From IMG/VR virus record IMGVR_UViG_3300048123_000029, positions 884 to 64,883 of that record: 64,000 nt of DNA; one strand, 5' to 3'. Shown one piece after another: positions 19,661 through 60,487 of the stretch; the first letter of the stretch is position 1; each line of letters opens with the position of its first letter. This DNA comes from a virus. Taxonomy: Duplodnaviria > Caudoviricetes. The translations under genes and the position numbers were made by a program. The notes beneath the pieces were generated by a model. It ran no database searches. It saw only the letters and a list, made by a program, of their open reading frames with translations, and was not told where the DNA came from.

Positions 19661-19697
19661 TAGTGGTCAGGCCATCTTATGGGTGGCCTAATTACTA
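19661..19697 (+). terminator. Intergenic stem-loop
   Basis: TAGTGGTCAGGCCATC-ttatg-GGTGGCCTAATTACTA. Confidence 0.6.
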
Positions 19698-19710
19698 TAA
19701 ATAAAAAAAT

Positions 19711-33900: not shown

Positions 33901-36900
33901 CAACAACCGGGTATTGACGGTGAGGTTGCTTCGGCTTCTCCTTTGCATGAGTTGGGCCACTGGCAAGTTAAACAGCAGGGTATAATAAAAGACAACAAAA
34001 TTGTTAGCGCTTCTAACGATATGGTTAGTAGTATTATAAATGATGTTAGGTCTAGGTTTAATAAAGGAAGCATATCTAAAGAAGCTTTTGATAATTTTAA
34101 TGCTAGAATTGCCCTATACAAAGATGTAGATGTTAAAGGAATAGACGCTGACGAGTTATTGCAATTAGTTTCAGACTTTACAGCAATAGGCGTTTTGCCT
34201 AAAAGTAGTTTTGGTAATATATATGGGGCAAAAACATTTGTAAACAGTATACTTAAAAAAGTAAATGGCGACTATTCTCATTTCTTTAAAATTAATTCAC
34301 CGAGCGATGTGTATGCGTTTGTTGCTAACTGGCAAAATAGAGCATTAGTATACCAATTACCTGAAGGGGAAGAAAAAGAGGGTGATAAAATTAAATCATC
34401 AAAGGCTGTAGAGAAGGTAAGACAAAGACTTGAATCAATACCATTAGAACAATTACCCTCACGCGCCAGTCAAAACATTATAGCTAATGAATTATTTGGC
34501 ATGGTAGATGCACAAATACGTAATAGACTTAATTTAGATCCAAACGTAAGAGAAGAGCTACAAGCTGACGTAATTGCAAGAGTATATGAAGCACAAGAAA
34601 ATACTAAATGGGACGGTAGGGGCAGCTTATATGGCTTTATAAACGGCCGTATCGCTAAGCGTATACTAGATGCTTTAAGAGCAAATCCAGATTATCTTGA
34701 TGTTGTAACAAAACAAGAGCTTACTGGTTTAGAAAAAGCTTCTGAAGTTGTAGTCGATGATGTACAAACAGCAAAAAAAGAAAAGCCTAAATTTAGAAAC
34801 TTATTACAAAGCAAAGTATTACCCGCTGACGCTTTAGAATCAGTACAAAAAAAATTGCTTAGTACAATAAGAGTGCTAAAATCAAAACTAGGCGCCGACA
34901 TTTCTATAAACAAAACAGTTACTCCTTTGGTAGCTGAGATTAAAAAAGAAATGGGTAAGCAGGCTGATATTGAATTTAAGAAAAGGTTAGGCTCAAAGAA
35001 AGATGGCATACTAAGAAAAAATTATCTTAGATTTAAAAAACCTATATTAGAAAACATGACAACCACTTGGTTGATGGGCGCTATGCCATTTGCTGTTCAA
35101 AAACAAGTTAATGGTAAGTTTACATCTGACTGGCAGGGCAAAAAGATTGACAGAGAAACGGTTGATACAGATAAAGCGGGTAGAACATCAGGCGCTGATA
35201 TAGTTAGAAGATTACCTAATATTGCAGATAAAGTTACTGACGAGCAATTTTTGTCTTACATGTTTAAAGACGGAGCTGTTATTCGTGGTCGTAAAGAATC
35301 TTTATCGAAGGCATTAGCCGAAGAGCTTGCGTTTGATTTATTTAATAGTGAATTACAAAAGCCAGACAGTGAATTAAGAAAAGCATTTGTAAATAATCAA
35401 GCAGCATTAGGCGCTGAACTTGCAGATAACTTTGTTCAAGAAGTACAAAAAGATACAGAACGAGGTAATATAAAATTTAGTAAAGGATTAGCTACATTAA
35501 CACCTGCAGAAAATGAAACTTTTAGAGATGGATTGCCAAAACTAAAAGAACTTATAGTAGGCATGGACAATGATTTTGGTAAAACGCCAACTGCAATTAA
35601 AAAAGTTCTGCAAAACACATATGGCGATAAATTTACTAAAAAACAATATGACGGTATATCTAAGCAATTTTTTAACTTATTAAAACCGTTAAATAAATCA
35701 TTCCCTAAAAAGTATGTTAATGTAAGTGAACAAGAACTAACAGATTATGTAGAGCAAGTTGCGCAAGATGTAGATGGCAATGCTTCTATACAATTATATA
35801 CAGGTGCTAGCGATTCTATTAAAAATTTATGGAACACAGGCACGAACGTTTATATAGCCCAGGAGGCTATTGAAAATGCGTTAAGCGAGTTACCTATAGA
35901 GACTGTTGTGGCTTTCTTTAGCGGTACTTTTGCTAACTCTGGCAAAGTTGGAATGCGTAACTTTAAAGACGCTAATGAAAGTTTTAGAGCTGATTTTTAC
36001 GGAGGTGAGGCTCAATGGCTTCCGGCTTTAAAAAGGATGTTCCCGCAGCTTGAAAGTATACAGAAAAACGGTGACATTGTTTTAAAAAACGGTAAAGTTA
36101 TAAAGAAAAAGTTTACAGCAACAGGCAGCGTTACTAAAGGCATGCTTGAAGCAAACTTTAATACAGATAAAGATATTAAAAATGCAACAGCTGCTTGGGA
36201 ATTTACTACAGCTGTCGTTAGGGGTATTAAAAATGAAAACCCCGACATACAAGCTATGGTTTTAGCGGCAATGAATAGCGGAACTAATACAGCTTTAAGA
36301 GTAGCTGCTCCTGTATTATATAGAACAGCGGGTTTTAATTCATTAGATAAAGATGATTATAGATACGAGCATGCTTTACCTGCTAGACGGGTTCTTTTTG
36401 ACATGTACAAGTCTATCGTGAAGGATGATAAGTCTATAAGCCTACAAGCGCTTAAAAACGATTATAAGGTCGCACTAATACCTAAGACAATGGATAAGGT
36501 TATTGGTGATCAAGGTTTAGGACCTATAGCAGTTGCAGGTTATGTTGCTGGGCAAACGCCATGGTACAGTCGCTATTATAATATACTAACGAGAGGAAAA
36601 GTACAATATGCTTTGGAATCTTTAGAGAATGGAGAAATTATTGGTCAAAATTATGCAGACTATTTTAATTCCACGTCTGATCCATTAACGGTTAAAACAG
36701 ACGCGCCAGCTGTAGTAGAAGCGAGTATAGCATATGAAAACGCTTTCAAGCTTTCAAAAGGCTTAAACTACGGTATAAATCCTAAAGGTATAACTGTGTT
36801 AGACTTTGACGATACCGTGGCGATATCTAAAAGCATGGTAATAGTTAAAATGCCAGTTCAAGACAAAGAGATATTGGACATAGCTGCTAGAAGAAAATTT

Positions 36901-39669
36901 AATAGCACTGTATTTAAAGACCTTCCTAGCTTTAAAAGATCATTTGATAATCTTTCAGAAGAACAAAAGCAAGAAGTTTTAAAAGAAGTTCCTGGCCCAA
37001 CTAAAAAAATTACACCAGCTGAGTTTGCAGCTGAATCGGTTAACTTAGAAAACCAAGGTGCTACCTTTGACTTTAGCGAGTTTAACAAAGTGGTTAAAGG
37101 CAGAAAAGGTCCATTGTTTGATTTAGCATTAAAAAGACAGGAAAAGTTTGGTAATGACAATATATTTATACTTACCGCAAGGCCGCAGGAATCAGCTTTA
37201 GCGATACAAAAATTTGCTAAAGGTTTAGGTTTAGATTTAAAGCTAGAGAATATAACAGGGCTCGCAGACGGAAGGCCAGAAGCAAAAGCCGAGTGGATGG
37301 TTGGGAAAGTTAACGAAGGATTTAATGATTTTTATTTTGCAGACGATCATTTTAAAAATGTTAAAGCAGTACAAGACACTTTAAGTTTATTTGATGTAAA
37401 ATCTGATGTTCAACAAGCTAAAATTAAATTTAGCAAAGGTCTAAATAAAAGTCTTAATAAAATGATTGAGCGCAACAAAAATGTAAAAGCCGAGGCTAAT
37501 TACTCAAAAGCGGTTGCGCGAAGAAAAGGAGCTAATAAAGGTAGATTTAAATTCTTTTTACCATATGGAGCAGAAGACTTTAGAGGTTTAACATCTTATG
37601 TTTTAGCCGGCAAAGGAAAGCAAGGAGATGCAGATCAAAAGTTTTTTGAAGATAATTTAGTTAATCCTTATGTAACAGGTGTAGCAGCAATGGAAAGAGC
37701 CAAGAGAGCATTAAAAAATGATTACGCGGCACTTAGAAAAATGTTCCCCACAGTTAGAAAAAAATTAGGTAAGAAAGTGCCAGGATTAGAATATACTTAT
37801 GACCAAGCTATAAGAATTTATTTGTATAATAAATCCGGGTTTGAAGTGTCTGGTTTATCTAAGCGTGATTTAAAAGCTATAAACAAATTTGTCGAAGGTG
37901 ATGCTGATGTAAAAGCTTTTGCCGATGGATTACAATTAATAACTAAAAAAGACGAATGGGTTAAGCCTAATGAGTATTGGGATGTGAGTAGCATATTACA
38001 AGATATAAACGAAATATCCGAAAAAGTTAGCAGAAAAGAATATCTTGCTGAGTTTATTGAAAATGTTGACGCTGTATTTGACGAGGCTATGCTAAATAAA
38101 CTTGAAGCGGTATATGGGACTGGTTACGTTGAAGCTTTAAATAATATTATAAGCAGAATGAAGTCTGGTGTAAACCGACCTAGCCAGCCTGGTAAATACG
38201 AAAGACAATGGTTAAACTGGGTTAACAATTCTGTTGGTACTATAATGTTTTTTAACAGAAGATCCGCTGTGTTACAGATGTTATCATTTGCTAACTTTGT
38301 AAACTGGAGCGACAACAATCCGTTAAAAGCGGGCATTGCTTTTGCTAATCAGCCGGCTTATTGGGAGGCATGGTCTAAAATATTCAATTCAGATAAACTA
38401 AAAGAAAGACGTGGAGGTTTAAAGTCCGACGTGCAAGAACAGGAAATTGCGAATCAAGCTAGGAATAGTAAAAACAAAGCAGGTGCTATAGTTTCTTATT
38501 TATTGAAAATAGGTTTTACCCCTACACAAATAGCAGATAGTATGGCTATTGCGACCGGAGGTGCTACGTTTTTAATAAACAGGACTAAAACATATACAAA
38601 ACAAGGCATGTCAAAAGCGGATGCCGAAGCTGCAGCGTTCGAAGATTTTAGTAAAATATCAGATGAGACACAGCAGTCAGGTGACCCTATGTTAATATCC
38701 GCTCAGCAGTCCAGCCATTTAGGGCGCCTTGTATTGGCTTTCCAAAATACGCCGATGCAATACACTAGATTAATGAAAAAAGCCGGCCAGGATCTTATAA
38801 ACGGCCGTGGCGACTTTAAAACTAATGTTAGTAAGATTGCTTATTATGGTTTTATACAAAACTTAATATTTAACTCATTGCAACAAGCTTTATTCGCTAT
38901 GATACCCGGTTTTAGTGATGAAGAAGATGAAGAAGATGTTGATAAAAAGCTAGATAAAAAAGAGTTAAAAATACTGAATGGAATGCTTGATTCTATATTG
39001 CGAGGCTCTGGTTTGTATGGTGCAATAGCATCTACGATTAAAAACGCATACATGCGCTACGAAAAAGAAGAAGAGAGAGGGTTTACCGCTGATCATACTT
39101 ATACATTGTTGGAGCTTGCAAACATATCGCCACCTATAGGTTCTAAGCTTAGAAAAGTGTATGGGGCAATACAAACAAATAAATTTGACAGGGGTATTAT
39201 AGAAAAAAGAGGTTTAGAAGTTTTAGACAAGCAAGGTAACTTAAATTTAAGCCCATCATATCAAATAATAGGCGGTCTATCTTCAGCATTTCTTAACCTA
39301 CCATTAGACAGGGTTGTATCTGAAATTAATGCTTTAGCGGAGGCGGTTGATGATAGAAACACTGCATATCAAAGAATAGCTTTGTCCTTAGGCTGGAGGA
39401 CATGGGATGTTAGCGCTAAGAATGAATATCACGATTTTCTTAAACTAGCTATACAGGAAGAGAAAAAAGATGCTTCAAAGAAAAAAAGAGAATATAATAA
39501 ACTTGTTGCAACGCAAAAGAAGTTTGATAAACTAGCTGCGATGACTCCTGATGAAAAACGAGAGTACTTATTAAAAGAAAAAGCAAAGCGATCTGCTGCA
39601 GCAAAAAAAGCAGCGGCTACAAGAAAGCGAAACAAAAGAGTAAGAGATTCAATACTAAGATCAAATTAA
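30913..39669 (+). CDS. Giant internal virion polyvalent protein (zincin, sigma-region-2-like, HNH-like and HAD modules)
   Basis: 2918 aa. HELGH aa1012-1016; sigma2-like aa~1187-1256; YEHALP aa1818-1823; HAD DFDDT aa1964-1968, LTAR, FADD; four K[FLS]SK linkers. Confidence 0.7.
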   Translation: MFKIKIDGVEYEINDSNIGVFQNAYGDLEQYKIEENTFQQDPASAETNVGSKNNTVSNSENGLLESNQPPERYINYKRNGKDASMSESEYNNFYADLEDKGRYPAEFDVYVAKTFPNTKIQTTNFDEGAMLDEVVVKAELSDEVKQAKKDSTELTAVIEAETPEANYEEIAGDYFTGLNDDGQITGMNRPQFFPTLRNSDGSPQMWQGKERKSGFSEYKNDYDTDLKNHLGPVKYKQYITAKELAEANGENLTKENVNQYISLELIQDNKNDKTIDSVVASKRSKAAENYTRDIGGFYVTDEEQKRQDLLEQFTGTDEVVTKKNTALLNEKERALRDARDFEAKFGRPLVRTEKLQGRTYTPFNRELTLNKVQEGEEKRIAKEAGEIESAVKIFDTQATELNNVQDEIRNYNVEQDNFNNPEEVAFRDSLFDRQRVLMNELQADQLILQARADKLTNDLNVYSTTNVADAALVKSYQTSDLLANTWESAFLGSAAQLGGAIISPFDGGITYEAATNYNQRLQSEAQKYLPQALTSDDDSSAAQYFGDMLIRNSPSIAVAAATMGAGAGLTGAARLAAIRQASNASMGIFFTMEAGGQLSNLEIQQREAPKMIAALNKQIEEAKANGTPLNEINKLEADKEYQENILSLNAFQKGFNSTIYGGTAALAERLGSLGFVKNFQKYSRAIGGNTLRKQFGETLGTNISKGLGNVTAVGAIGPGIEFIEEGATLIAQNLSDNLIFQPENPKSLIDGLDGEFFRNTYVTSLAIGGAGASQNVMTALNNEVKTRKQARQENEIRDKLIDVSNKLNTLDGRTKEARNLKQERDNLISDAADLNTAIPLNLKGLTGSEINRVFENAASIRKLKYQASQLDLASFDARDRREFERLKNASQVLYNESQSILGRSEAEIEKLAKNTPNPLVTEVNFRRFNMFKEIAKETKGVNVIDINNEEQFNAYLKENKLDGKKYSYTAMNEGNNSAAQVNNDILIFNEIAARNMQQPGIDGEVASASPLHELGHWQVKQQGIIKDNKIVSASNDMVSSIINDVRSRFNKGSISKEAFDNFNARIALYKDVDVKGIDADELLQLVSDFTAIGVLPKSSFGNIYGAKTFVNSILKKVNGDYSHFFKINSPSDVYAFVANWQNRALVYQLPEGEEKEGDKIKSSKAVEKVRQRLESIPLEQLPSRASQNIIANELFGMVDAQIRNRLNLDPNVREELQADVIARVYEAQENTKWDGRGSLYGFINGRIAKRILDALRANPDYLDVVTKQELTGLEKASEVVVDDVQTAKKEKPKFRNLLQSKVLPADALESVQKKLLSTIRVLKSKLGADISINKTVTPLVAEIKKEMGKQADIEFKKRLGSKKDGILRKNYLRFKKPILENMTTTWLMGAMPFAVQKQVNGKFTSDWQGKKIDRETVDTDKAGRTSGADIVRRLPNIADKVTDEQFLSYMFKDGAVIRGRKESLSKALAEELAFDLFNSELQKPDSELRKAFVNNQAALGAELADNFVQEVQKDTERGNIKFSKGLATLTPAENETFRDGLPKLKELIVGMDNDFGKTPTAIKKVLQNTYGDKFTKKQYDGISKQFFNLLKPLNKSFPKKYVNVSEQELTDYVEQVAQDVDGNASIQLYTGASDSIKNLWNTGTNVYIAQEAIENALSELPIETVVAFFSGTFANSGKVGMRNFKDANESFRADFYGGEAQWLPALKRMFPQLESIQKNGDIVLKNGKVIKKKFTATGSVTKGMLEANFNTDKDIKNATAAWEFTTAVVRGIKNENPDIQAMVLAAMNSGTNTALRVAAPVLYRTAGFNSLDKDDYRYEHALPARRVLFDMYKSIVKDDKSISLQALKNDYKVALIPKTMDKVIGDQGLGPIAVAGYVAGQTPWYSRYYNILTRGKVQYALESLENGEIIGQNYADYFNSTSDPLTVKTDAPAVVEASIAYENAFKLSKGLNYGINPKGITVLDFDDTVAISKSMVIVKMPVQDKEILDIAARRKFNSTVFKDLPSFKRSFDNLSEEQKQEVLKEVPGPTKKITPAEFAAESVNLENQGATFDFSEFNKVVKGRKGPLFDLALKRQEKFGNDNIFILTARPQESALAIQKFAKGLGLDLKLENITGLADGRPEAKAEWMVGKVNEGFNDFYFADDHFKNVKAVQDTLSLFDVKSDVQQAKIKFSKGLNKSLNKMIERNKNVKAEANYSKAVARRKGANKGRFKFFLPYGAEDFRGLTSYVLAGKGKQGDADQKFFEDNLVNPYVTGVAAMERAKRALKNDYAALRKMFPTVRKKLGKKVPGLEYTYDQAIRIYLYNKSGFEVSGLSKRDLKAINKFVEGDADVKAFADGLQLITKKDEWVKPNEYWDVSSILQDINEISEKVSRKEYLAEFIENVDAVFDEAMLNKLEAVYGTGYVEALNNIISRMKSGVNRPSQPGKYERQWLNWVNNSVGTIMFFNRRSAVLQMLSFANFVNWSDNNPLKAGIAFANQPAYWEAWSKIFNSDKLKERRGGLKSDVQEQEIANQARNSKNKAGAIVSYLLKIGFTPTQIADSMAIATGGATFLINRTKTYTKQGMSKADAEAAAFEDFSKISDETQQSGDPMLISAQQSSHLGRLVLAFQNTPMQYTRLMKKAGQDLINGRGDFKTNVSKIAYYGFIQNLIFNSLQQALFAMIPGFSDEEDEEDVDKKLDKKELKILNGMLDSILRGSGLYGAIASTIKNAYMRYEKEEERGFTADHTYTLLELANISPPIGSKLRKVYGAIQTNKFDRGIIEKRGLEVLDKQGNLNLSPSYQIIGGLSSAFLNLPLDRVVSEINALAEAVDDRNTAYQRIALSLGWRTWDVSAKNEYHDFLKLAIQEEKKDASKKKREYNKLVATQKKFDKLAAMTPDEKREYLLKEKAKRSAAAKKAAATRKRNKRVRDSILRSN

Positions 39670-50516: not shown

Positions 50517-50540
50517 ATGGTTTTCTTATTTGGTATATTA

Positions 50541-50550
50541 ATATAATTAC
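50541..50550 (-). promoter_or_regulatory. Putative middle promoter GTAATTATAT heading the recombination/replication block
   Basis: Identical to the 4938 element; 24 nt upstream of the ERF start. Confidence 0.5.
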
Positions 50551-50579: not shown

Positions 50580-51332
50580 TTACAGATAATCAATCACTTG
50601 GTTTGCGTCAGTGTTAGCGATAAGTTTATTTATAGCTTCTCTTTTTATCTGTGAAACACGTACATTTGCAGTGTTTACATTTATATTTAATTTGCCTGCT
50701 ATATAATTAGCAGAGTGCTTGTCACAATCCAAACCGTATGATAATCTCAATACTTCATATTCAATACCTGTTAAGTGTTGTTTCATTAAACTTAACAAAT
50801 AAGCATTGAGTAAATTTATATTGTATGGTTCAGAATTATCTGGTATTTGAAACAATGGATTTTCCTCTTCTGTATTATAATTTACATCTATACTAGAAAA
50901 TATAGAATTAAAAAACATTGTAACAATTTTTTCATCTTTAGGATTCTTACGTATTTCAGTTAGCTTATGTTCTGGTATGCGTATGTCACCCCGGTTAATA
51001 TCAATCGCACGTCTTATAGCTCCTTTAATTCTTTTACTAAAGAAACTTTTTAAAGTTTTTTCAATATCTTCAGAGTCAATAAGCTTATCCCATTCTAACT
51101 TATCTACCGCAAGAGTTAAACCTTTGCTACCTTCTTGTATTAAATCGTTAATACTTAGTACTCCGGATGCTTGTTCTGATGTAGCGAACTTGCGCGCTAG
51201 ATTCTCAACAAGCGGTAAAAATTTTACAATTAACTCATCTCTTGTGTAGTAATCATAAAACTTATCTTCAGGCATAGACCGTTTAAGATCTTCCTTATAC
51301 CTTATATAGTTTTGTACATTGTACTTTTTCAT
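50580..51332 (-). CDS. Sigma-70-family RNA polymerase sigma factor
   Basis: Region 2 LPLVENLARKF...DLIQEG..GL..AVDK; region 3 IRIPEH; region 4 VLRLSYGL...IA..L...RVSQIKREAINKL. Confidence 0.9.
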   Translation of the reverse strand: MKKYNVQNYIRYKEDLKRSMPEDKFYDYYTRDELIVKFLPLVENLARKFATSEQASGVLSINDLIQEGSKGLTLAVDKLEWDKLIDSEDIEKTLKSFFSKRIKGAIRRAIDINRGDIRIPEHKLTEIRKNPKDEKIVTMFFNSIFSSIDVNYNTEEENPLFQIPDNSEPYNINLLNAYLLSLMKQHLTGIEYEVLRLSYGLDCDKHSANYIAGKLNINVNTANVRVSQIKREAINKLIANTDANQVIDYL

Positions 51333-51949
51333 AGTTGTTGATTAAGTAATTCTTTTTCTTTTTTAAGTTCGTTACTCATATTACGATATATAGTTCTTGT
51401 TGAACATTTAAGTGCGTCAGCAAGCCTTGCAACCGTTATTTTAATTTGGCTATCATTTATAAGTAGCATCGCATCGTATATTTCGCTTTCAGATATTTTA
51501 GATCTACCGACTAGCTTACCTACTATAGATAGCTTTTGTCGCATATCTAAACCCGTGAAGTCTTTGAATATAACTTTACGTAATTTATTAGGTGGAGGTG
51601 TATCTAATTCCATCAAAGAAACATCATATATCATGCTTTCCCTAAGTTGATCTGAAACATTAAATGTTACAAACCCTGTACGCTTATTACATATGTATTT
51701 AACAAGCCCTGCAAAAGCTTCTTGATCCAGTTGAGGATTAAGATACCATAACACATACAAATGCCATTTGAGGCTCTTATATGTGTTTATTTTAGCCCGT
51801 GAGTTAAAGAGTGTATAGCATTGATGTGTACCACTTTCGTAATACCAGCCCCACTCGAACGTTTCTGTAGGTTCGTCTGACCACGGAAAACATCTATATA
51901 TAATACGATGCTGGTTTAGGTATTTGGTATTTCGGTCGTAGTATGACAT
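51329..51949 (-). CDS. DNA-binding protein with C-terminal HTH (possible replication initiator or regulator)
   Basis: C-terminal KITVARLADALKCSTRTIYRNM. Confidence 0.65.
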   Translation of the reverse strand: MSYYDRNTKYLNQHRIIYRCFPWSDEPTETFEWGWYYESGTHQCYTLFNSRAKINTYKSLKWHLYVLWYLNPQLDQEAFAGLVKYICNKRTGFVTFNVSDQLRESMIYDVSLMELDTPPPNKLRKVIFKDFTGLDMRQKLSIVGKLVGRSKISESEIYDAMLLINDSQIKITVARLADALKCSTRTIYRNMSNELKKEKELLNQQL

Positions 51950-53631: not shown

Positions 53632-53912
53632 AATCTATTTATTTTGTTTTCTATATATTTAATTTTATTGTGTATAATCGCAGCTTTTTCGAACTGCTCT
53701 TTTTCTTCGTATCCAGATAGCAATGTCATTAATCTAGCTAACTCAGCGAGTAATAACTCTTCTTCATTAACAAGTTCAGCGTTAGTACCTGTGAACATTT
53801 GATTTACGTCAGTGGTGAATTGCTGATCCCATTCTTTCTGCTTTTCAATTAAGCCGATCATAACAAGGTCAGCAACTCTTACCGCTAACTGTTCAATTTC
53901 ATCTTCAGTCAT
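53628..53912 (-). CDS. UVR-motif coiled-coil protein
   Basis: C-terminal EQFEKAAIIHNKI. Confidence 0.55.
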   Translation of the reverse strand: MTEDEIEQLAVRVADLVMIGLIEKQKEWDQQFTTDVNQMFTGTNAELVNEEELLLAELARLMTLLSGYEEKEQFEKAAIIHNKIKYIENKINRL

Positions 53913-54136
53913 TAACCTACTTTATTATATTCCCACTGGCCAATGATGTGGCTATTAATAAATTTACCTTTAGATGAAGCATTAAATAAGCCGTGCCAGT
54001 AAAAAGATGGTACACGCTCATAGTCGTAAACAACGCCGCTTTTATAAAATAACGTTAGTCTTTTAGTTACGTTGTTGTACTTTGCATCATGGATGCACTC
54101 GGAGTCCACTAGGACTTTTTCAATTATATTACTCAT
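53912..54136 (-). CDS. KTSC-domain protein
   Basis: DSECIHDAKY...L.L.YKSG..YDY..VP...L.NASSKGKF.N..I. Confidence 0.85.
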   Translation of the reverse strand: MSNIIEKVLVDSECIHDAKYNNVTKRLTLFYKSGVVYDYERVPSFYWHGLFNASSKGKFINSHIIGQWEYNKVG

Positions 54137-54149
54137 AGTTTTAATTTAT

Positions 54150-54184
54150 TATATTATCGATTATACTTCGTGTTAAGTTTGTAA
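54150..54184 (-). promoter_or_regulatory. Early promoter-like motif, copy 1
   Basis: Minus-strand consensus TTACAAA-N3-AAYACGA-N8-CGATAATATA; 13 nt upstream of the KTSC ATG. Confidence 0.8.
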
Positions 54185-54185
54185 A

Positions 54186-54800
54186 TTAGTGAAACACTAA
54201 ACCTACCTTGTGATTTTTACTAAACCACTTTGTTGCCATCAGATCAATACTAGAAGCATCCACATAACCGTTAGATACAAGATCGCTATTAGTAGAAAAG
54301 ATTTTTGTGTGTCTGTGTTTTCTTTCATTTATCATATGTTTTTGCTTGCCTGAATCACTGAATATTATATCGTAATTACTTGGCAATGAAGTCTTTAGCA
54401 TCATATCTACCATATTGGTATAACTGTAAAACCGTACGCTTGGGTTGTGTATAGCAACTTCAATCCACTTTTTTAGATATGCGGGTGAGTAGTAATCTCC
54501 GCTATCATGGACTCTGACGTAATCAGGTTTCTTCTTACGTATTTCAGCGTTCATAGCCTCAACAAAGTTGTCAGTCTTTGTTAGCTGATAACGCTTCTCA
54601 AACGCCGGTTTTACATTAGACCAGATGTAGGCTCCTTTCTTGGCATAACAAAATTTAACGCATTCGTCAGCCATCGGGCATGTCAACTTACCACTTGCAG
54701 ATTTATATGCAGGTATACCGAAGTTAAACACGCGAAGCCCGAGTTCTTTACTTGTCTTTTTTAGTTTACTGTTCTGTGTCAGGAGATTCATAGTACTCAA
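54186..54800 (-). CDS. GP88-like protein (Cys-cluster, radical-SAM-related)
   Basis: TCPMADECVKFCYA, RVHDSGD, FYSYT. Confidence 0.7.
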   Translation of the reverse strand: MSTMNLLTQNSKLKKTSKELGLRVFNFGIPAYKSASGKLTCPMADECVKFCYAKKGAYIWSNVKPAFEKRYQLTKTDNFVEAMNAEIRKKKPDYVRVHDSGDYYSPAYLKKWIEVAIHNPSVRFYSYTNMVDMMLKTSLPSNYDIIFSDSGKQKHMINERKHRHTKIFSTNSDLVSNGYVDASSIDLMATKWFSKNHKVGLVFH

Positions 54801-54978
54801 TTATTTTTTCAATATCGTCTTCCATGTTTATAATGTCCCGCGCATATTCTAGCAAATCTTTAAATCCAGATAGTTCATAACTACTGAATTCATACACATC
54901 ACGCTCTTCGATCGCGTAGATGCAGTCTCTCATATCTTTTGCCGTGTTTTCGAAGCGGCAATAACTCATATTTGGCAT
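54766..54978 (-). CDS. Hypothetical early protein
   Basis: MPNMSYCRFENT..D..DC. Confidence 0.6.
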   Translation of the reverse strand: MPNMSYCRFENTAKDMRDCIYAIEERDVYEFSSYELSGFKDLLEYARDIINMEDDIEKIIEYYESPDTEQ

Positions 54979-54988
54979 AATTTTAGTA

Positions 54989-55273
54989 TTAGTCTAGCAA
55001 TACCATATAGGCTTCAATATTGTTTTTTTGAAACCAACGTAGTGCTTTGTGAAATTCATTTATTTGTTTACTTGTTACTGTTTTAGGTGCAACTTCCATT
55101 ACATACTGGCTACCCATAATAAAATCGTACATCGATAGCTCAACACCGTTTAGATCGTATGTTTCGCCGCTGAACGGGTTTGTTACTGTTTCACCATTTT
55201 CGTATATCATACCAGTAAACCATTTAGGCACCGACTGTTTCGTCTTCTCTTTCGTACTCATAACCTTCTTCAA
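54989..55273 (-). CDS. Hypothetical early protein
   Basis: VTNPFSGE...YDFIMG...AYMVLLD; start uncertain. Confidence 0.6.
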   Translation of the reverse strand: MKKVMSTKEKTKQSVPKWFTGMIYENGETVTNPFSGETYDLNGVELSMYDFIMGSQYVMEVAPKTVTSKQINEFHKALRWFQKNNIEAYMVLLD

Positions 55274-55685
55274 TTAGTTCGTTTTCAATTTCTTTTTTCT
55301 TATCATTGTAATAGTCGTCATATACTTCTTCAACAACTTCTTGAAAAGCATAGTCTTCATCATCAAGCTGGTCGTAGTATATGCTAGCGCCATCAATCAT
55401 AGCGTCAGGCATTTTTTCTAACCAGTCGTTATCGTAATAGTATACGTCTTCATTAACATTAGGGTTGCGATCATTGTCGGTTGCAATCCATACTTCATAG
55501 CCATCGGCAGTTGTTTCAGTATAAAACATCATGTCAGGTCTATTAGGCCAGTCGCTAGTTATCTTAAAATCAAAGTGATTAGCTATAGTTTTAAGCATGT
55601 AGTCATGGTCTAAATCTTCTCTTTCAAGTACGTTAATTTTACGTAACCTAGCGGCTATCAATTCGTCAGTTAGTATTTTACTCAT
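55224..55685 (-). CDS. Acidic hypothetical early protein
   Basis: 153 aa, very D/E/Y-rich. Confidence 0.6.
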   Translation of the reverse strand: MSKILTDELIAARLRKINVLEREDLDHDYMLKTIANHFDFKITSDWPNRPDMMFYTETTADGYEVWIATDNDRNPNVNEDVYYYDNDWLEKMPDAMIDGASIYYDQLDDEDYAFQEVVEEVYDDYYNDKKKEIENELIEEGYEYEREDETVGA

Positions 55686-55929
55686 AGTCTTTAGATATTA
55701 AAATGTTATCGCCGTATTTAAAATCCCACGCTGAAACTCTCATAAGCTCAAGGTTAGAAAATGTATATAACGAGCTAACGTCGCTAATTTTTAAGTCACT
55801 ATAAAATGTAGTGCTTGAAAAAGCCTCGACTATAGAGTCAATAGAAGCTTTGTATTTGTCGTTTTCAGAGGAATGTAACGCCTCTTTGATTTCAGGCTTT
55901 AGCCTTTCATAAATTGTTAGTCTACTCAT
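55678..55929 (-). CDS. Hypothetical early protein
   Basis: 83 aa, directly after promoter copy 2. Confidence 0.6.
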   Translation of the reverse strand: MSRLTIYERLKPEIKEALHSSENDKYKASIDSIVEAFSSTTFYSDLKISDVSSLYTFSNLELMRVSAWDFKYGDNILISKDYE

Positions 55930-55943
55930 GTTTGTTTGATTTA

Positions 55944-56150
55944 TTATATTATCGATTCTTGTTCGTATTCAATTTGTAAATTTTCTAACGCTATTTTATA
56001 ACCAAAGTTAATCGCCATTTGCATTAGTATTAAAGAGCCTTGACCGCATCCGCCAGCAAAGTTCTCTAGTTGTTCTCTGTCTTCAGGCGTTGCTACAATA
56101 CCTCGATCGAGCTTCGCCATTTCTGTTTTTATGTATTTATTTATTTCCAT
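55944..56150 (-). CDS. Hypothetical early protein
   Basis: Start moved to MEINKY (56150) because the longer track ORF runs through the tRNA-like element. Confidence 0.55.
   Translation of the reverse strand: MEINKYIKTEMAKLDRGIVATPEDREQLENFAGGCGQGSLILMQMAINFGYKIALENLQIEYEQESII
55945..55979 (-). promoter_or_regulatory. Early promoter-like motif, copy 2
   Basis: + strand TATATTATCG-attcttgt-TCGTATT-caa-TTTGTAA. Confidence 0.8.
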
Positions 56151-56152
56151 AG

Positions 56153-56221
56153 TGGACGTGGCAGGAATCGAACCTGCGTTTAGGTAATGCACAAAGCAGA
56201 ACCCCTATCCATTTCACGCCC
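56153..56221 (-). ncRNA. tRNA-like RNA (tmRNA tRNA-like domain or D-armless tRNA-Ala mimic)
   Basis: Acceptor GGGCGTG/CACGTCC with G3-U70 and A73; T-arm GCAGG-TTCGATT-CCTGC; no D stem; no encoded CCA. Confidence 0.7.
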
Positions 56222-56225
56222 AATT

Positions 56226-56462
56226 GAGAGGTGGACGGGACTGGAATGTTAGGAATGCACGTCATTTACTAGTATGCCCTGACTTATATCCTTTTATCTG
56301 TTTTATCCCGTCTTTCGCCTGCATACGTATCTCATCTCCGAGTTTCTATATGCGACAGCTTCCAACCTTAAACCTCTCTGTAGTGTGTCAAACATCCTTT
56401 CTGCTGCTTGCCGATTAGCAAGTTTCAACCATTCGTCATGGTCTTAGTGGGAAACACGCTAC
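56226..56462 (-). ncRNA. Candidate structured RNA leader of the tRNA-like element
   Basis: About 235 nt without a convincing ORF, containing several nested helices (see findings). Confidence 0.4.
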
Positions 56463-56647
56463 TTACGTCGCCAAGATCGGTGCACTGATGCGCTTACCTC
56501 TTGACTGACAATTTGTATTGTATTGCCCGTTTTATGCTCAATGATTGGGACATACGAGTATGTTTTAGTTGTTGAGCACTTCACACACGTGTTATATCCT
56601 AAGTCTAAACGGACAGGGTGTACTTTATTTCCACATCTACAATACAT
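56459..56647 (-). CDS. Small Zn-finger protein
   Basis: YCRCG...HPVRLDLGYNTCVKCS. Confidence 0.65.
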   Translation of the reverse strand: MYCRCGNKVHPVRLDLGYNTCVKCSTTKTYSYVPIIEHKTGNTIQIVSQEVSASVHRSWRRK

Positions 56648-56672
56648 AGTTTAATTTTTTATTTGTTACATT

Positions 56673-56707
56673 TATATTATCGATTTGCGTTCGTATTACA
56701 TTTGTAA
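56673..56707 (-). promoter_or_regulatory. Early promoter-like motif, copy 3
   Basis: TATATTATCG-atttgcgt-TCGTATT-aca-TTTGTAA. Confidence 0.8.
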
Positions 56708-56709
56708 AT

Positions 56710-56841
56710 TTAATACATATCCGCCTGCCACTGAGGTATACCTGCGTTGTATCTCTCCCAATACTGACGCTCGATCGCCTCTATTTGCACTCTTGTGAGT
56801 GGTTTGTGGCTAAATTTTCGTTGTTTTCTTTGTTTCTTCAT
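56710..56841 (-). CDS. Small hypothetical protein (43 aa, not in ORF track)
   Basis: MKKQRKQRKFSHKPLTRVQIEAIERQYWERYNAGIPQWQADMY. Confidence 0.45.
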   Translation of the reverse strand: MKKQRKQRKFSHKPLTRVQIEAIERQYWERYNAGIPQWQADMY

Positions 56842-57007
56842 ACATTTTAGCTATTGCGAGGTGCATAACGTGGCTGTGTATAGCATTAAAGTCATCACCG
56901 TCTTGTTCAAAATCCGATAGTTGCCATTCAACACTATCATACATTAGTTCCATTGTGACGTCAGCGACACCTTGTGCGATTTCGTCAAGTTCTTTCATTT
57001 TACTCAT
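56810..57007 (-). CDS. Hypothetical early protein
   Basis: 65-aa ORF. Confidence 0.55.
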   Translation of the reverse strand: MSKMKELDEIAQGVADVTMELMYDSVEWQLSDFEQDGDDFNAIHSHVMHLAIAKMYEETKKTTKI

Positions 57008-57116
57008 AGATATATTCTTCCATTGCGTTAATAAAATCGTTTTTATCGATTATTTTAGAGTCATAGCAGTTTAAATTGTATATAAACGCTTCGTATAATT
57101 CTTTATTAGTTGCCAT
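57000..57116 (-). CDS. Small hypothetical protein (38 aa, not in ORF track)
   Basis: MATNKELYEAFIYNLNCYD...; overlaps both neighbours. Confidence 0.45.
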   Translation of the reverse strand: MATNKELYEAFIYNLNCYDSKIIDKNDFINAMEEYIYE

Positions 57117-57348
57117 TTACAAAATCTTTATGTTTAGTTACCATCCATTCGCAATTGGAAAGCTTATGACCTGCACCGTGTAGGAATGCTTCGATTACTT
57201 CACTGTCGTCAGTTAAATCACTTACATCATATCTATATGCTTTGCCATCGGTATAGTCCATAATGAATACCCATTGTGCTTTTTGATGGTACGGTTTTTC
57301 GTTATTTTCTTCTTGCATCTCGTGCCATTTAGTTATTGTATCACTCAT
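57106..57348 (-). CDS. Hypothetical early protein
   Basis: 80-aa ORF. Confidence 0.6.
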   Translation of the reverse strand: MSDTITKWHEMQEENNEKPYHQKAQWVFIMDYTDGKAYRYDVSDLTDDSEVIEAFLHGAGHKLSNCEWMVTKHKDFVNGN

Positions 57349-57350
57349 AA

Positions 57351-57647
57351 TTAGTCTCCTGTATAGTTATCCCACCGGGTTTTACTCGCGTAGTACTCTG
57401 CACATCCGGCGTCATGCAGTCTACGTAATTCAGTATATCGATCGATATTATCTATTTTATCGTCAATTCTAGCTTTCATTTCAGCTTCTGTTTGGGCTGG
57501 TAAGTAGCTAACATTATAAGGCGCGAAGTTAAAGTGTTCACAGCCGTAACCGCTAGCTTGCTTACCGTTCCAAGTAGTCCACTCTTTGTAGTGGTAGGGA
57601 ATACCCCTATGCAAAAGCATCCCAGATAGTTTTTTTGTCTTCGACAT
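57351..57647 (-). CDS. Hypothetical early protein
   Basis: 98-aa ORF ending YTGD. Confidence 0.6.
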   Translation of the reverse strand: MSKTKKLSGMLLHRGIPYHYKEWTTWNGKQASGYGCEHFNFAPYNVSYLPAQTEAEMKARIDDKIDNIDRYTELRRLHDAGCAEYYASKTRWDNYTGD

Positions 57648-57810
57648 AAGTTAAGCCTTTGTAGTTAAACCATTGATAAATTCCGTCTTTATCTTTATCT
57701 TCATTATATTTGAAACCGAATGAAGGTGGCAGATTGCCTACTGTGTATGGTTTGAATTTAATACCATTAAGTTTAATAGATTTGTCGGTTGAAATTTTAA
57801 ATGTTTGCAT
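57607..57810 (-). CDS. Hypothetical early protein
   Basis: FKPYTVGNLP..F...WFNYKGLTY. Confidence 0.6.
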   Translation of the reverse strand: MQTFKISTDKSIKLNGIKFKPYTVGNLPPSFGFKYNEDKDKDGIYQWFNYKGLTYVEDKKTIWDAFA

Positions 57811-57834
57811 AGTATATTATTTATTTTATTCAAT

Positions 57835-57869
57835 TATATTATCGATTTGTGGTCGTGTTTATTTTGTAA
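57835..57869 (-). promoter_or_regulatory. Early promoter-like motif, copy 4
   Basis: TATATTATCG-atttgtgg-TCGTGTT-tat-TTTGTAA. Confidence 0.8.
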
Positions 57870-58110
57870 AAGTGCCATCGTGGTACATAGTGTGTATGTT
57901 ATTAGAGAACCTTTGTGTTTCCCACAGTTTAGTGTGTGAATGAGTTCTACCTTTGTTACCAGCACCTTTAGCTCGTACTTGTACACGTTTGTATTCTCGA
58001 TCGGTTAAGCCAGAGCAATAGTCACCTCTAGTTACTTCGATTCTATGTTTGCGATTCTTCGCTAGTCTTGAGTTTTTAACGTACTCACACGCTTCTTTCA
58101 TTGTCATCAT
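57859..58110 (-). CDS. Hypothetical basic early protein
   Basis: 83-aa ORF. Confidence 0.55.
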   Translation of the reverse strand: MMTMKEACEYVKNSRLAKNRKHRIEVTRGDYCSGLTDREYKRVQVRAKGAGNKGRTHSHTKLWETQRFSNNIHTMYHDGTFTK

Positions 58111-58394
58111 TGTACATTTCGTTTTACCCAGTTAATAATATATTCAAGTCGATCGAGTTCGTTAGGTATTAGTACTCGTTTGTGGTTATAGATAGTTACA
58201 TCCATTCTACCCCTGCCGTGCCATACGCCCGTCCAATACTCGTCTTTAATTTTTACCACTTTGTTTATTTGGTATAACCTGTCGAGTCGGTTGCTATCAA
58301 TTCTTATATAACCTGATTGATAAGATTTTATTTTACGTCCGTCGTTTAGTAGGAACGTGGTAGTTCCGTTATTATTTATTTCTATTAGTTTCAT
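58107..58394 (-). CDS. Hypothetical early protein
   Basis: SYQSGYIR...YQINK. Confidence 0.6.
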   Translation of the reverse strand: MKLIEINNNGTTTFLLNDGRKIKSYQSGYIRIDSNRLDRLYQINKVVKIKDEYWTGVWHGRGRMDVTIYNHKRVLIPNELDRLEYIINWVKRNVQ

Positions 58395-58399
58395 ACTTA

Positions 58400-58434
58400 T
58401 ATATTATCGTTAGGTAATCGTATTAGTTTTGTAT
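58400..58434 (-). promoter_or_regulatory. Early promoter-like motif, copy 5
   Basis: TATATTATCG-ttaggtaa-TCGTATT-agt-TTTGTAT. Confidence 0.78.
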
Positions 58435-58593
58435 TTTGTTTATTAAATCGTTTGCTAACATTTCATATGTTTCGCCATCTTCTAGGTCACATTCGTATTT
58501 AACGAAGTTCCATAGTTCTCGGTAATTGTTTTCGTCTTTAGAGTATAATTCCTTGAAGTACTCTATAGTATCGTCATTCCAGTGAAATTCCAT
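58423..58593 (-). CDS. Small acidic protein (56 aa, not in ORF track)
   Basis: MEFHWNDDTIEYFKELYSKD... Confidence 0.55.
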   Translation of the reverse strand: MEFHWNDDTIEYFKELYSKDENNYRELWNFVKYECDLEDGETYEMLANDLINKIQN

Positions 58594-58594
58594 A

Positions 58595-58729
58595 TTATTT
58601 AAATTTAGCCGCTACTTCGTAGATTTCTTGTTTGTCGTCGTAATCTAAACCTTCAGTTTGATTAGCGTACATTCTTAATACATAGTGTACAAAGACACAA
58701 TCGTTTTCGGTGAGTTTAATATTTTTCAT
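58595..58729 (-). CDS. Small protein (44 aa, not in ORF track)
   Basis: MKNIKLTENDCVFVHYVLRMYA... Confidence 0.55.
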   Translation of the reverse strand: MKNIKLTENDCVFVHYVLRMYANQTEGLDYDDKQEIYEVAAKFK

Positions 58730-58860
58730 TTGTTAGTTGATTTATAGTAGTTAATTCTTTCTAAGACTTCTTGTCTTTCTATAAGACCCTCCATTTGCTG
58801 TAAAACATCGGTAGACATATCTATTTGTTTTCCGTTTTCACAAGTAAGTATAAATTGCAT
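58726..58860 (-). CDS. Small protein (44 aa, not in ORF track)
   Basis: MQFILTCENGKQIDMS...; ATGA overlap with the next gene. Confidence 0.55.
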   Translation of the reverse strand: MQFILTCENGKQIDMSTDVLQQMEGLIERQEVLERINYYKSTNK

Positions 58861-58883
58861 AGTAGTTATTTTTTAAATTCATA

Positions 58884-58918
58884 TATATTATCGAATACAC
58901 CTCGTATTGACTTTGTAA
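58884..58918 (-). promoter_or_regulatory. Early promoter-like motif, copy 6
   Basis: TATATTATCG-aatacacc-TCGTATT-gac-TTTGTAA. Confidence 0.8.
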
Positions 58919-59006
58919 AAAGTATATAATTTGTTTATTAGTTAAAATAGTATTACAGGTATTGTACTCTACCTCTAAGTACCTAGAAAATTATTTACCC
59001 AAATAG

Positions 59007-59053
59007 TGTGACAATAGGGTGTTAAGTATATATAATAAGAAGCTATCGTCGCA
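59007..59053. repeat. 47-bp dyad element, copy 2
   Basis: TGTGACAATAG-N25-CTATCGTCGCA. Confidence 0.7.
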
Positions 59054-59188
59054 TACCGATCGATTGAATAAGTTATAGGTGGTTGCTATACACATCAGTT
59101 ACGATGCATACCTGCGATCTGTTCAACGTTATTTATACTGGTGATGCACACATCTCAACGCGCCAGTCCCGTTAGGGTTTGAACTAGA

Positions 59189-59503
59189 TTACTTTACTTC
59201 GTCTAGTTCAATTCTTTCGATTACATTAGTTCGAACATTCGAAGGCATATCGGTACTTTGAGACCAGTAACCTCTTTTAATCCAGCAAGGCATAATGTTT
59301 AGTTTAGGTAACATTACTTTAAGAACCTCATCGTGATTGTAAGTAATCTTTTGATTTTTGTTATTTACAAAGGTAATGATTTGGTTTCTACCGTACCAAG
59401 ATTTACGGACTACGAAGTTTTTACGTTCGATCGGTGGGAAGATTTCATTTAGTTCTTCTTTAGATAGTTTTGAAATTACTTCAGTTAATTTAGAATTTGA
59501 CAT
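59189..59503 (-). CDS. Hypothetical early protein
   Basis: 104-aa ORF after promoter copy 7. Confidence 0.65.
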   Translation of the reverse strand: MSNSKLTEVISKLSKEELNEIFPPIERKNFVVRKSWYGRNQIITFVNNKNQKITYNHDEVLKVMLPKLNIMPCWIKRGYWSQSTDMPSNVRTNVIERIELDEVK

Positions 59504-59536
59504 ATTTATTAATTTTAATTATTATTTATTTACATT

Positions 59537-59571
59537 TATATTATCGAATACCGTTCGTATTCAGTTTGTAA
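59537..59571 (-). promoter_or_regulatory. Early promoter-like motif, copy 7
   Basis: TATATTATCG-aataccgt-TCGTATT-cag-TTTGTAA. Confidence 0.8.
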
Positions 59572-59573
59572 GT

Positions 59574-59693
59574 TTAGTAGAAATCATAGTAGATATCTAA
59601 TACTTCAGACTTTTGTTCGTCTGTCAGCTGAGTGTAATGCTTATCGAATACTCTCCAGCTTATTTTCAATAGTGTGTAAGAAAAGTTTGACAT
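59574..59693 (-). CDS. Small protein (39 aa, not in ORF track)
   Basis: MSNFSYTLLKISWRVFDKHYTQLTDEQKSEVLDIYYDFY. Confidence 0.55.
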   Translation of the reverse strand: MSNFSYTLLKISWRVFDKHYTQLTDEQKSEVLDIYYDFY

Positions 59694-59723
59694 AGTTTAA
59701 GATTTTAAAGGTTATTAATTATT

Positions 59724-59876
59724 TTAGTAGCAGATATCGCAAGGGATATGACCTGCTCCGTTGACAGCAACATCGTAGCTTATTGCAATTAATGCTGCGA
59801 TAATGAATGCTGTAGTTCCGATGACCAGTGCTTGGCCCGCATACTTTAGGATGACTTTGTGATTGAATTTGTACAT
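59724..59876 (-). CDS. Small single-pass membrane protein (50 aa, not in ORF track)
   Basis: MYKFNHKVILKYAGQALVIGTTAFIIAALIAISYDVAVNGAGHIPCDICY. Confidence 0.6.
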   Translation of the reverse strand: MYKFNHKVILKYAGQALVIGTTAFIIAALIAISYDVAVNGAGHIPCDICY

Positions 59877-59899
59877 AGTTATTATTTTTTGTATTCATA

Positions 59900-59934
59900 T
59901 ATATTATCGTTAACCGATCGTGCTAAGTCTGTAA
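59900..59934 (-). promoter_or_regulatory. Early promoter-like motif, copy 8 (first in the transcription direction)
   Basis: TATATTATCG-ttaaccga-TCGTGCT-aag-TCTGTAA. Confidence 0.75.
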
Positions 59935-59945
59935 ATGCTATACAT

Positions 59946-60056
59946 GGATCCTGTATCCTGTGCCTGGGAAAGCCCGAACCCTGGTCGAGATCCCGCGAGC
60001 TGTGGCGCCTGGGACCTGGCAGCTGATCCTGGGAACGTGATCCTGAAACCTGGAAA
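59946..60056 (+). repeat. GC-rich cluster of short co-oriented CCTG(G)/GATCC repeats
   Basis: Six CCTGG and four GATCC in about 110 bp of an AT-rich genome. Confidence 0.65.
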
Positions 60057-60163
60057 CGATATGGGGGCTGGCAAAAAGAAACGGGTTTTACTTACGCTGG
60101 TGTACAGTGTATATGTAGTAGCAACCCATTACTTCCCTATATCTAACTATTTTTTAAATATAA

Positions 60164-60209
60164 TGTGACACTAGGTAGTTATATATAATAGTAGCAGGCA
60201 ACTGTCGCA
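60164..60209. repeat. 46-bp dyad element, copy 3
   Basis: TGTGACACTAG-N24-CAACTGTCGCA. Confidence 0.6.
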
Positions 60210-60244
60210 TTAAGTACTCCGAAAACAGCGTAATCATACACAGT

Positions 60245-60487
60245 ATGACACAAAAACTATCTCCGGCAGCAAGAAGAGCTAAGCGTGCACGGGACAAAGC
60301 ATACGCTATGACACCTGATCGGAGAAGGAAAAAAGCACATTCCCAGCGAGAGCGCAGGAAAAAGCCCTGCCCTGACGGTTATGACTACGATCACAAGAGA
60401 CAAAAGTGCGTATCAATAGCATCCAATAGAGGAAACGAGGGTGAGGGAACTAAAAAAGAAAGTGGTAACGACTACAACACAAACTAA
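60245..60487 (+). CDS. Small basic protein with truncated HNH-like motif
   Basis: GYDYDH.....VS...NRG. Confidence 0.55.
   Translation: MTQKLSPAARRAKRARDKAYAMTPDRRRKKAHSQRERRKKPCPDGYDYDHKRQKCVSIASNRGNEGEGTKKESGNDYNTN

Follow-up and report, generated by a model that had tools for sequence, protein, structure and literature searches.

The stretch of DNA analysed here, referred to as the window, comprises 64,000 nucleotides of a Caudoviricetes phage (bases 884-64883 of the 64,883-base virus record IMGVR_UViG_3300048123_000029). Its subject is a promoter-like motif repeated in a region of small genes, and the phage sigma factor encoded downstream of it. The window consists of two arms. Positions 1-41068 of the plus strand encode a terminase, a portal protein, a weak crAss-like capsid match, a 1906-amino-acid (aa) crAss-muzzle protein and a 2918-aa protein without family match. 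The minus strand, read leftward from 59934 to 41065, carries about 20 small open reading frames (ORFs) followed by genes for a ligase, a 206-aa helix-turn-helix (HTH) protein, a 250-aa sigma factor, Erf, an exonuclease, a primase-helicase, ThyA, MazG and ribonucleotide reductase.

The window, and likewise the record itself, was searched with the pattern TTACAAA-N3-AAYACGA-N8-CGATAATATA, allowing up to three mismatches, and 100 dinucleotide shuffles served as the null. The window yielded eight matches, all on the minus strand (six exact, one with one mismatch and one with two), compared with a mean of 0.00 and a maximum of 0 in the shuffles (n=100). The whole record contained the same eight copies and no further ones, and the reversed-pattern control gave 0. 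When scored with a weight matrix derived from relatives, the eight copies reached 41-54 bits; the rest of the window always stayed below 15 bits. The distances from the 3' end of the motif to the likely start codon are 5, 13, 15, 23, 23, 24, 25 and 33 nt. These results bear out the original prediction, made from the sequence of the window, that eight minus-strand copies lie 5-33 nt ahead of an ATG, with none outside the small-gene region. In the order of the leftward arm, the copies are as follows:

59900-59934, minus strand: copy 8, two mismatches, 44 bits; ATG at 59876, 23 nt on; the putative first promoter of the leftward arm
59537-59571, minus strand: copy 7, exact, 54 bits; 33 nt to the ATG of gene 59189-59503; contains the palindrome GAATAC-N5-GTATTC
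58884-58918, minus strand: copy 6, exact; 23 nt to the ATG at 58860
58400-58434, minus strand: copy 5, one mismatch; 5 nt to the ATG at 58394, so that the leader would be almost nil
57835-57869, minus strand: copy 4, exact; 24 nt to the ATG at 57810
56673-56707, minus strand: copy 3, exact; 25 nt to the ATG of a 62-aa zinc-ribbon-like gene, 56459-56647
55945-55979, minus strand: copy 2, exact; overlaps the 3' end of the upstream ORF; 15 nt to the ATG at 55929
54150-54184, minus strand: copy 1, exact; 13 nt to the ATG of a KTSC-domain gene, 53912-54136

Copy 1 is the final copy ahead of the replication genes, the HTH gene and the sigma gene. The two CGA triplets of the motif, which had been described as one helical turn apart, are separated by 11 bp in all eight copies, but the second C is not conserved in relatives, where C, G, A or T is found. 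An inverted repeat of 5-6 bp, (G)AATAC-N5-GTATT(C), spans the central box and the spacer in two of the eight copies (59537-59571 and 58884-58918) and recurs at the orthologous copies of relatives; it may represent an extra operator on a subset of the promoters.

The IMG/VR database was searched with AAYACGA-N8-CGATAATATA alone, the upstream TTACAAA block being left out of the pattern, and at least 190 stretches with the motif were retrieved. Among 226 unique instances from other phages, the upstream block was recovered unrequested (T 88%, A 95%, C 99%, A 98%, A 87%, A 85%). A downstream element, wwTGwAw, was also conserved in these instances, with an A-rich tract behind it. The motif exceeds the proposed 35 bp: the eight copies reproduce that length, but conservation continues beyond it. 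Each of five complete relatives contains 8-9 co-oriented copies (reversed-pattern control, 0 hits). At 80 IMG/VR loci encoding a homologue of the phage sigma factor (65-99% identity), 303 hits lay on the same strand and one on the opposite strand, and at least one hit was found upstream of the sigma gene in 56 of the 56 loci having more than 3 kb of upstream DNA. The notion of a co-oriented, gene-preceding, promoter-like motif thus holds both for the window and for its relatives. The segments ACAAA, AAATAC and GATAATA are invariant over lineages, and the base preceding GATAAT may be C, G, A or T; one lineage has TTTGCAAAC where others have TTTACAAA, and relative G002 carries the variant GATTAT. 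Judged from these alignments, the motif is a putative promoter class shared by the whole clade of related phages. It was absent from all five cultured or deposited relatives examined (MW202828, elemoA, phi38:1, phi18:3 and Gundel_1). Literature searches on the motif string, on phage sigma factors in Bacteroidetes and on virion-delivered sigma factors returned no description of the motif, the clade or the mechanism.

The anatomy of the motif can be read from genes that begin within it. Start-codon positions were collected from loci L206-L285 as unique cases (the overall histogram comprises 460 instances). Sixteen unique cases had their ATG at position 28 of the motif, which is the fourth base after ...ATATA; one had it at position 27, two at position 29 and seven at position 30. 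The genes concerned are conserved and include those for the sigma factor itself, a primase-helicase, a Pyr_excise-like protein, a zinc-ribbon protein and the MTDxQ family. Because a sharp one-base pile-up of ATG codons is expected of leaderless mRNAs, we took position 28 as +1; the predicted transcription start is accordingly the fourth base after CGATAATATA. This would place GATAAT at −12 to −7, with an invariant A at −11 and an invariant T at −7, both of which are kept in GATTAT as well. Its final T lies 7 nt from the predicted +1, within the 6-8 nt typical of a sigma-70-type −10 element with invariant A−11 and T−7. AAYACGA would then occupy −28 to −22 in the spacer, and TTACAAA would form an upstream, −35-like element at −38 to −32 with the core ACAAA. 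The alternative −10 registers TAATAT and TATAww were rejected: the start site would fall downstream of many start codons borne by the motif. The leaders that follow the motif are A-rich and have no Shine-Dalgarno sequence.

Among the deposited phages nearest by terminase (87 records), the hosts are Flavobacterium, Cellulophaga, Tenacibaculum and Maribacter, with one exception, an environmental Caudoviricetes whose host is not stated. On account of these hosts and of the A-rich leaders devoid of Shine-Dalgarno sequences, the host is likely to belong to the Bacteroidota, probably to the Flavobacteriia. The phi14:2 preprint describes middle and late genes transcribed by the host polymerase from a tripartite motif, and states that the transcripts of the virion polymerase (gp66) share no upstream motif. 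Read off the phi14:2 genome, these host-type promoters have the form TTG-N19-21-TAnnTTTG. In the 120 nt ahead of the gene starts of the window, TTG-N18-21-TAnnTTTG was never present, compared with six sites in phi14:2 as the positive control, and in none of the eight motif copies does TAnnTTTG occur in register. The claim that the motif is unlike the Bacteroidota −33/−7 consensus is thereby upheld, and by sequence the motif is not a Bacteroidota sigmaA promoter. The counts per genome of TAnnTTTG in the 60 nt before a same-strand start, and of full −33/−7 sites in the 120 nt before it, are listed below; as a rough estimate, 3-4 of the −7 boxes per genome would be expected by chance.

Window (G000), motif and sigma present: TAnnTTTG 1, full −33/−7 sites 0
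G005, motif and sigma present: TAnnTTTG 0, full −33/−7 sites 0
G003, motif and sigma present: TAnnTTTG 1, full −33/−7 sites 0
G002, motif and sigma present: TAnnTTTG 4, full −33/−7 sites 0
MW202828, motif and sigma absent: TAnnTTTG 17, full −33/−7 sites 2
elemoA, motif and sigma absent: TAnnTTTG 15, full −33/−7 sites 2
phi38:1, motif and sigma absent: TAnnTTTG 9, full −33/−7 sites 2
phi18:3, motif and sigma absent: TAnnTTTG 11, full −33/−7 sites 1
phi14:2, motif and sigma absent: TAnnTTTG 7, full −33/−7 sites 6

The boxes of MW202828 and elemoA (TATCTTTG) lie in some cases directly past terminator hairpins of the structural arm, and the motif-bearing clade has TTACTATAAATA at the orthologous place. 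From this comparison the clade appears to have swapped out host-type promoters throughout.

Twelve Bacteroidota genomes contained no orthologue of the phage sigma factor; the only matches were weak ones to region 4 (best E 3e-8) in frames of the size of sigmaA. The motif was not enriched in 300 Flavobacteriaceae genomes, of which nine gave a hit with at most one mismatch, against seven hits for the reversed-pattern control. From these searches, a host factor is unlikely to be the reader. Exact motifs in bacterial assemblies were found in 96 stretches, mostly short, phage-looking contigs of metagenome-assembled genomes, and 46 of the 80 listed were labelled Bacteroidota. Lone chromosomal hits and pairs before trypsin-like peptidase operons (G019, G023 and G025) were considered as a possible host regulon, which the lack of enrichment does not bear out; since the 300 genomes are an unselected sample, we treat the chromosomal hits as chance or local duplications. 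As a separate observation, a few chromosomes of Flavobacteriaceae and other Bacteroidota (L399-L404) carry one or two near-exact, correctly oriented copies before operons for secreted proteins and MORN-repeat trypsin-like peptidases, and such local pairs have near-identical spacers, although the overall frequency is at chance level.

Two adjacent genes of the leftward arm are of interest with regard to the reader of the motif:

50580-51332, minus strand: stand-alone phage sigma-70-family factor of 250 aa with regions 2 and 4; proposed motif reader
51329-51949, minus strand: 206-aa protein with a C-terminal HTH, directly upstream of the sigma gene

The phage sigma factor matches solved SigA chains (E 8e-7), its regions 2 and 4 are conserved and its family has at least 8000 database relatives. 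A homologue is encoded by all five complete motif-bearing relatives (62-91% identity), and sigma was present in 16 of the 16 motif-bearing genomes checked, the phage's own included. With the five complete relatives as the positive control, sigma was absent from MW202828, elemoA, phi38:1, phi18:3 and Gundel_1, all five of which lack the motif. Because regions 2 and 4 are both conserved, the factor should need a two-part promoter, and the motif is the sole multi-copy two-part signal found in these genomes. A search for a second multi-copy promoter class revealed single conserved sites only, and GTARTTATATAWW was not enriched (53 found, 44 expected). The 206-aa HTH protein is conserved in G002, G003 and G005 (54-94% identity), where it always adjoins sigma on its upstream side; it may act as a partner or regulator at the central AAYACGA box. 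Two single sites were recorded in passing. TTACTATAAATA, past the terminator hairpin before gene 19711 (19680-19710), and GTAATTATATTAATA, before Erf (50536-50550), are both AT-rich, look like a −10 element only and are kept in four of the four genomes compared; sigma-less MW202828 has the host-type TATCTTTG at the place corresponding to the AT-rich site of the clade.

On the strength of the promoter architecture, the universal co-occurrence with sigma and the loss of host-type promoters, we tentatively propose that the eight copies are phage-specific promoters read by the host core RNA polymerase together with the phage's own 250-aa sigma factor, a reading that we regard as nearly, though not quite, an even call. 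The host core polymerase would take up the phage sigma factor and then recognise the GATAAT −10 element plus the upstream element with its ACAAA core. Since Bacteroidota sigmaA needs TTG-N20-TAnnTTTG, these promoters would be invisible to the host primary sigma, and 8-10 strong promoters before small genes would give the phage a transcription programme orthogonal to that of the host. Both sigma as the reader and the timing of promoter use are deductions from the genome. The first sigma molecules could arise by self-activation out of leaky transcription, by delivery of sigma activity with the DNA (a packaged sigma factor or, in some lineages, a sigma-like module embedded in a virion protein), or by weak recognition of the promoters by a host holoenzyme. 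The earlier suggestion that a phage factor reads the motif is favoured by comparison, with a conserved sigma and few host-type boxes in the clade as opposed to 7-17 in sigma-less relatives, but the suggested link to the embedded module is not supported.

Several points weigh against this proposal. Circularity is the chief difficulty: sigma is encoded within the arm served by these promoters, in several relatives directly behind a copy, so that it would be made from the arm that its own promoters drive. In a classical cascade, host holoenzyme reads an early gene such as that for sigma, and later promoters are left to the phage sigma factor. The joint occurrence of sigma and motif is not phylogenetically independent, both being found in one clade and neither in distant relatives. 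The distance between the upstream element and the −10 element is also long, with ACAAA ending 19 bp and TTACAA 20 bp before GATAAT; the usual range is 16-19 bp, and the 20-bp spacing of TTACAA and GATAAT exceeds the usual 17 bp. To the conserved central box, AAYACGA, no reader is assigned. By NCBIfam the sigma factor fits no specific subgroup: the FliA/WhiG model matches 19 of 26 family members, and the RpoD, ECF-superfamily and SigBFG models score alike. No clean co-variation of sigma residues with motif variants was observed among homologues of 65-99% identity (one more distant full-length relative had only 167 nt of upstream DNA), and the base before GATAAT changes at least seven times on the sigma tree. 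Finally, the predicted +1 rests on start-codon positions rather than on mapped RNA ends; the four RNA runs compared are contigs of relatives 90-99% alike and carry no read starts.

The alternative that survives best, although we consider it unlikely, is that the copies are early promoters of an ordinary kind, recognised without any phage protein by a host holoenzyme containing sigmaA or another host sigma factor. The phage sigma factor would then be an early product that serves promoters used later, such as the AT-rich sites resembling TATAAT or TATAAATA that precede Erf and the structural operons. Such an arrangement would obey the logic of the classical cascade, as the copies head the leftward arm before small genes and sigma lies downstream of, or right behind, one of them. 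The single conserved AT-rich sites before Erf and gene 19711 could then be the targets of sigma, the most host-like part of which is region 4 of sigmaA-sized ORFs. Moreover, the upstream block TTTGCAAAC of one lineage includes the host −33 TTTG. The motif also resembles Bacteroidota sigmaA promoters (−33 TTTG/−7 TAnnTTTG, as in the middle and late promoters of phi14:2) in the host group, in the A-rich leader lacking a Shine-Dalgarno sequence and in a T-rich or TTG-like block about 35 bp before the start. It differs from them, however, in lacking TAnnTTTG in register in every one of the eight copies, and in having GATAAT as its −10 element, 3 bp farther from the upstream TTG/TTA block than in the host type. 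Furthermore, none of the four motif-bearing genomes has a full host-type promoter upstream of a gene, in contrast to the free use made of such promoters by sigma-less relatives, and the 300 Flavobacteriaceae genomes show no host regulon with this signal, the host itself being deduced.

A second alternative, which we judge improbable, is that a factor delivered with the DNA reads the motif first, be it the stand-alone sigma factor packaged in the virion or a region-2-like module of the 2918-aa protein. The relevant features are:

30913-39669, plus strand: 2918-aa multi-domain protein of the structural arm, with HExxH and DFDDT motifs
34450-35502, plus strand: conserved central block of this protein (residues 1180-1530), the N-terminal part of which (34546-34683) weakly resembles sigma-70 region 2

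By its sequence, the 2918-aa protein is likely to be virion cargo or a 'polyvalent' protein. Its HExxH motif reads HELGH and is zincin-like; the DFDDT motif is haloacid-dehalogenase-like. Some homologues swap in Zeta_toxin/AAA_33 kinase domains, which, together with these two motifs, fits the polyvalent class with variable cargo. The whole clade shares only the last ~850 residues, and G002-G004 have just this C-terminal part. The protein matched no PDB or Pfam family.

Delivery is suggested by the clade itself, which is devoid of host-type promoters, so that something must begin transcription. The 2918-aa protein follows the muzzle-like protein, at the place where crAss-like phages put their virion polymerase. 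That polyvalent proteins of the virion can 'jump-start transcription' is a theme already described (Iyer et al. 2017, PMC5512222), and the 2918-aa protein shares with such proteins its giant, multi-domain character, its location in the structural arm, the HExxH motif, the variable cargo domains and the conserved C-terminal part. A sigma-like domain, weakly supported here, sets it apart from them, the word 'sigma' occurring 0 times in the main text of that paper.

The signal for the module itself is weak yet repeated. The central block was found in more than 900 giant proteins, and the likeness to sigma region 2 lies in its first ~100 residues. With Pfam Sigma70_r2, matches were obtained for 4 of 26 homologue segments (best E 3.7e-6), one homologue scoring 23.8 bits against a cut-off of 24; the window's own match, at 34546-34683, has an E value of 0.01. 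Protein-atlas neighbours of the block are named as sigma-70 region 2 proteins (score 0.94), which we take as a lead only. The embedded sigma module, as originally put forward, thus has a faint region-2 signal behind it. In wider comparisons, no solved sigma structure was matched by phmmer or profile search, no similarity to the phage's own sigma was detected by BLASTP, hhalign against the sigma family gave a probability of 0.2 and no region 4 was detected in the module.

The proposed tie between module and motif was not supported. The block was found in only 6 of the 16 genomes that keep motif and sigma, and local hmmsearch --max left it untraced in G002 and G003. The argument that the position of sigma downstream of copy 1 makes delivery in the virion plausible is weakened by relatives such as G003 and G005, in which a motif copy sits right on the start codon of the sigma gene; for this reason, self-activation fits as well as virion delivery. 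A combined scenario, which we hold to be doubtful, is that the clade dropped host-type promoters and that sigma activity injected with the DNA (packaged sigma or, in some lineages, the region-2-like module in the giant cargo protein) brings host core polymerase to the 8-10 phage-only promoters, the sigma gene itself then being driven from one of them. If true, this would be a case of an injected sigma factor rather than an injected polymerase.

More improbable still is that the motif serves mainly as an operator. AAYACGA...CGA would then be contacted from one side of the helix by a DNA-binding protein of the phage, perhaps the 206-aa HTH protein, and a set of otherwise weak AT-rich promoters would be switched on or off jointly. 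In favour of this, the central box lies in the spacer, a region of few sigma base contacts, the conserved blocks repeat with a period of about 11 bp, the gene for the HTH protein is retained next to sigma and the GAATAC-N5-GTATTC palindrome is present in two of the eight copies. Against it, the lineage-invariant ACAAA and GATAATA occupy the positions of promoter elements, the second CGA is unconserved and an operator would complement a sigma-read promoter rather than displace it.

Other known systems were compared with the proposed pair of phage sigma factor and motif. Bacillus phage SPO1 gp28, with its middle promoters, and phiEco32 gp36 are phage sigma factors with promoters of their own, and each is first produced from host-type early promoters. 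The present system is similar in that a phage sigma-70-family protein would send host core polymerase to near-identical, phage-only, two-part promoters. It is unlike them in that no full host-type promoter was seen, the sigma gene lies behind its own putative promoter class and small, 'early-looking' genes are served. The sigma-28 (FliA/SigD) promoter consensus is TAAA-N15-GCCGATAA. To this the motif of the window's lineage, CAAA-N16-wTCGATAA, is a near match in sequence and spacing, and the phage sigma factor is as group-3-like as anything. However, the C of CGATAA varies among lineages (C, G, A or T), the factor is not specifically FliA and there is an extra central box; identity with sigma-28/FliA promoters was rejected, the −10 CGA of GCCGATAA not being conserved.

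The hairpin promoters of coliphage N4 and the virion polymerase gp66 of the crAss-like phi14:2, systems of podophages, have in common with the window a host-sigma-independent early transcription, putative here, and giant proteins of the structural arm. The genome carries a crAss-like muzzle domain (6e-8) and the capsid match mentioned above, which is sub-threshold. The motif copies form no hairpins (minimum free energy −0.4 to −3.7 kcal/mol; six of the eight no better than shuffles, z −0.6 to +1.0), so that the motif is not N4-like. A crAss-like virion-polymerase system was rejected at the level of sequence, as the 2918-aa protein matches no solved chain and contains no DFDxD RNA-polymerase motif; its sole D.D.D string is DYDTD (residue 221), and the pattern [DN][FYLIVM]D[GIVA]D is matched nowhere. 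A T7-like single-subunit polymerase was likewise dismissed: no RNA polymerase family was detected among 73 ORFs of the window scanned with Pfam, which yielded no DNA polymerase family either, or among 20 scanned with PHROGs.

Phage sigma factors with private promoters are already known. What is new, as far as the genomes compared here indicate, is a very abundant marine clade that unites a widespread sigma factor and motif, in which no host-type promoters were seen and in which sigma lies behind its own promoter class. This raises the question of how transcription begins when the host primary sigma cannot read the incoming genome. In metagenomes, a 42-bp signature marks the clade and its early genes. 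E. coli-type genetic parts fail in Bacteroidota, and the sigma factor and its putative promoter are a candidate orthogonal pair for genetics in this group.

Some further features of the window were noted. A GroEL-type chaperonin gene is located at 5292-6845. Between two small genes, the minus strand at 56150-56460 is non-coding and richer in GC, and ends in a tRNA-like T-arm (GGTTCGATTCC). An Rfam match to transfer-messenger RNA at 56150-56221 was sub-threshold (36.4 bits against a gathering score of 47, E 3.7e-12), and ARAGORN reported none. The metatranscriptome contig of one relative skips 56180-56380 (201 nt, n=1), and G002 carries a tRNA-like sequence at the analogous place. The divergent intergenic region of the two arms, 59935-60245, is GC-rich and packed with short repeats (CCCAGG, CAGGAT), and may be an origin or a packaging or regulatory site. 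An element of the form GTGACA-(AT-rich, TATATAATA)-GTCGC occurs twice on the plus strand. The copy at 59005-59060 lies in a non-coding gap of the small-gene region, antisense to it, and includes the flagged sigma-70-like pair GTGACA-N17-TATAAT; the copy at 60162-60215 heads the rightward structural operon. G005, G003 and G002 have all kept this element, G003 in inverted orientation; a role as late promoter, operator or origin is conceivable.

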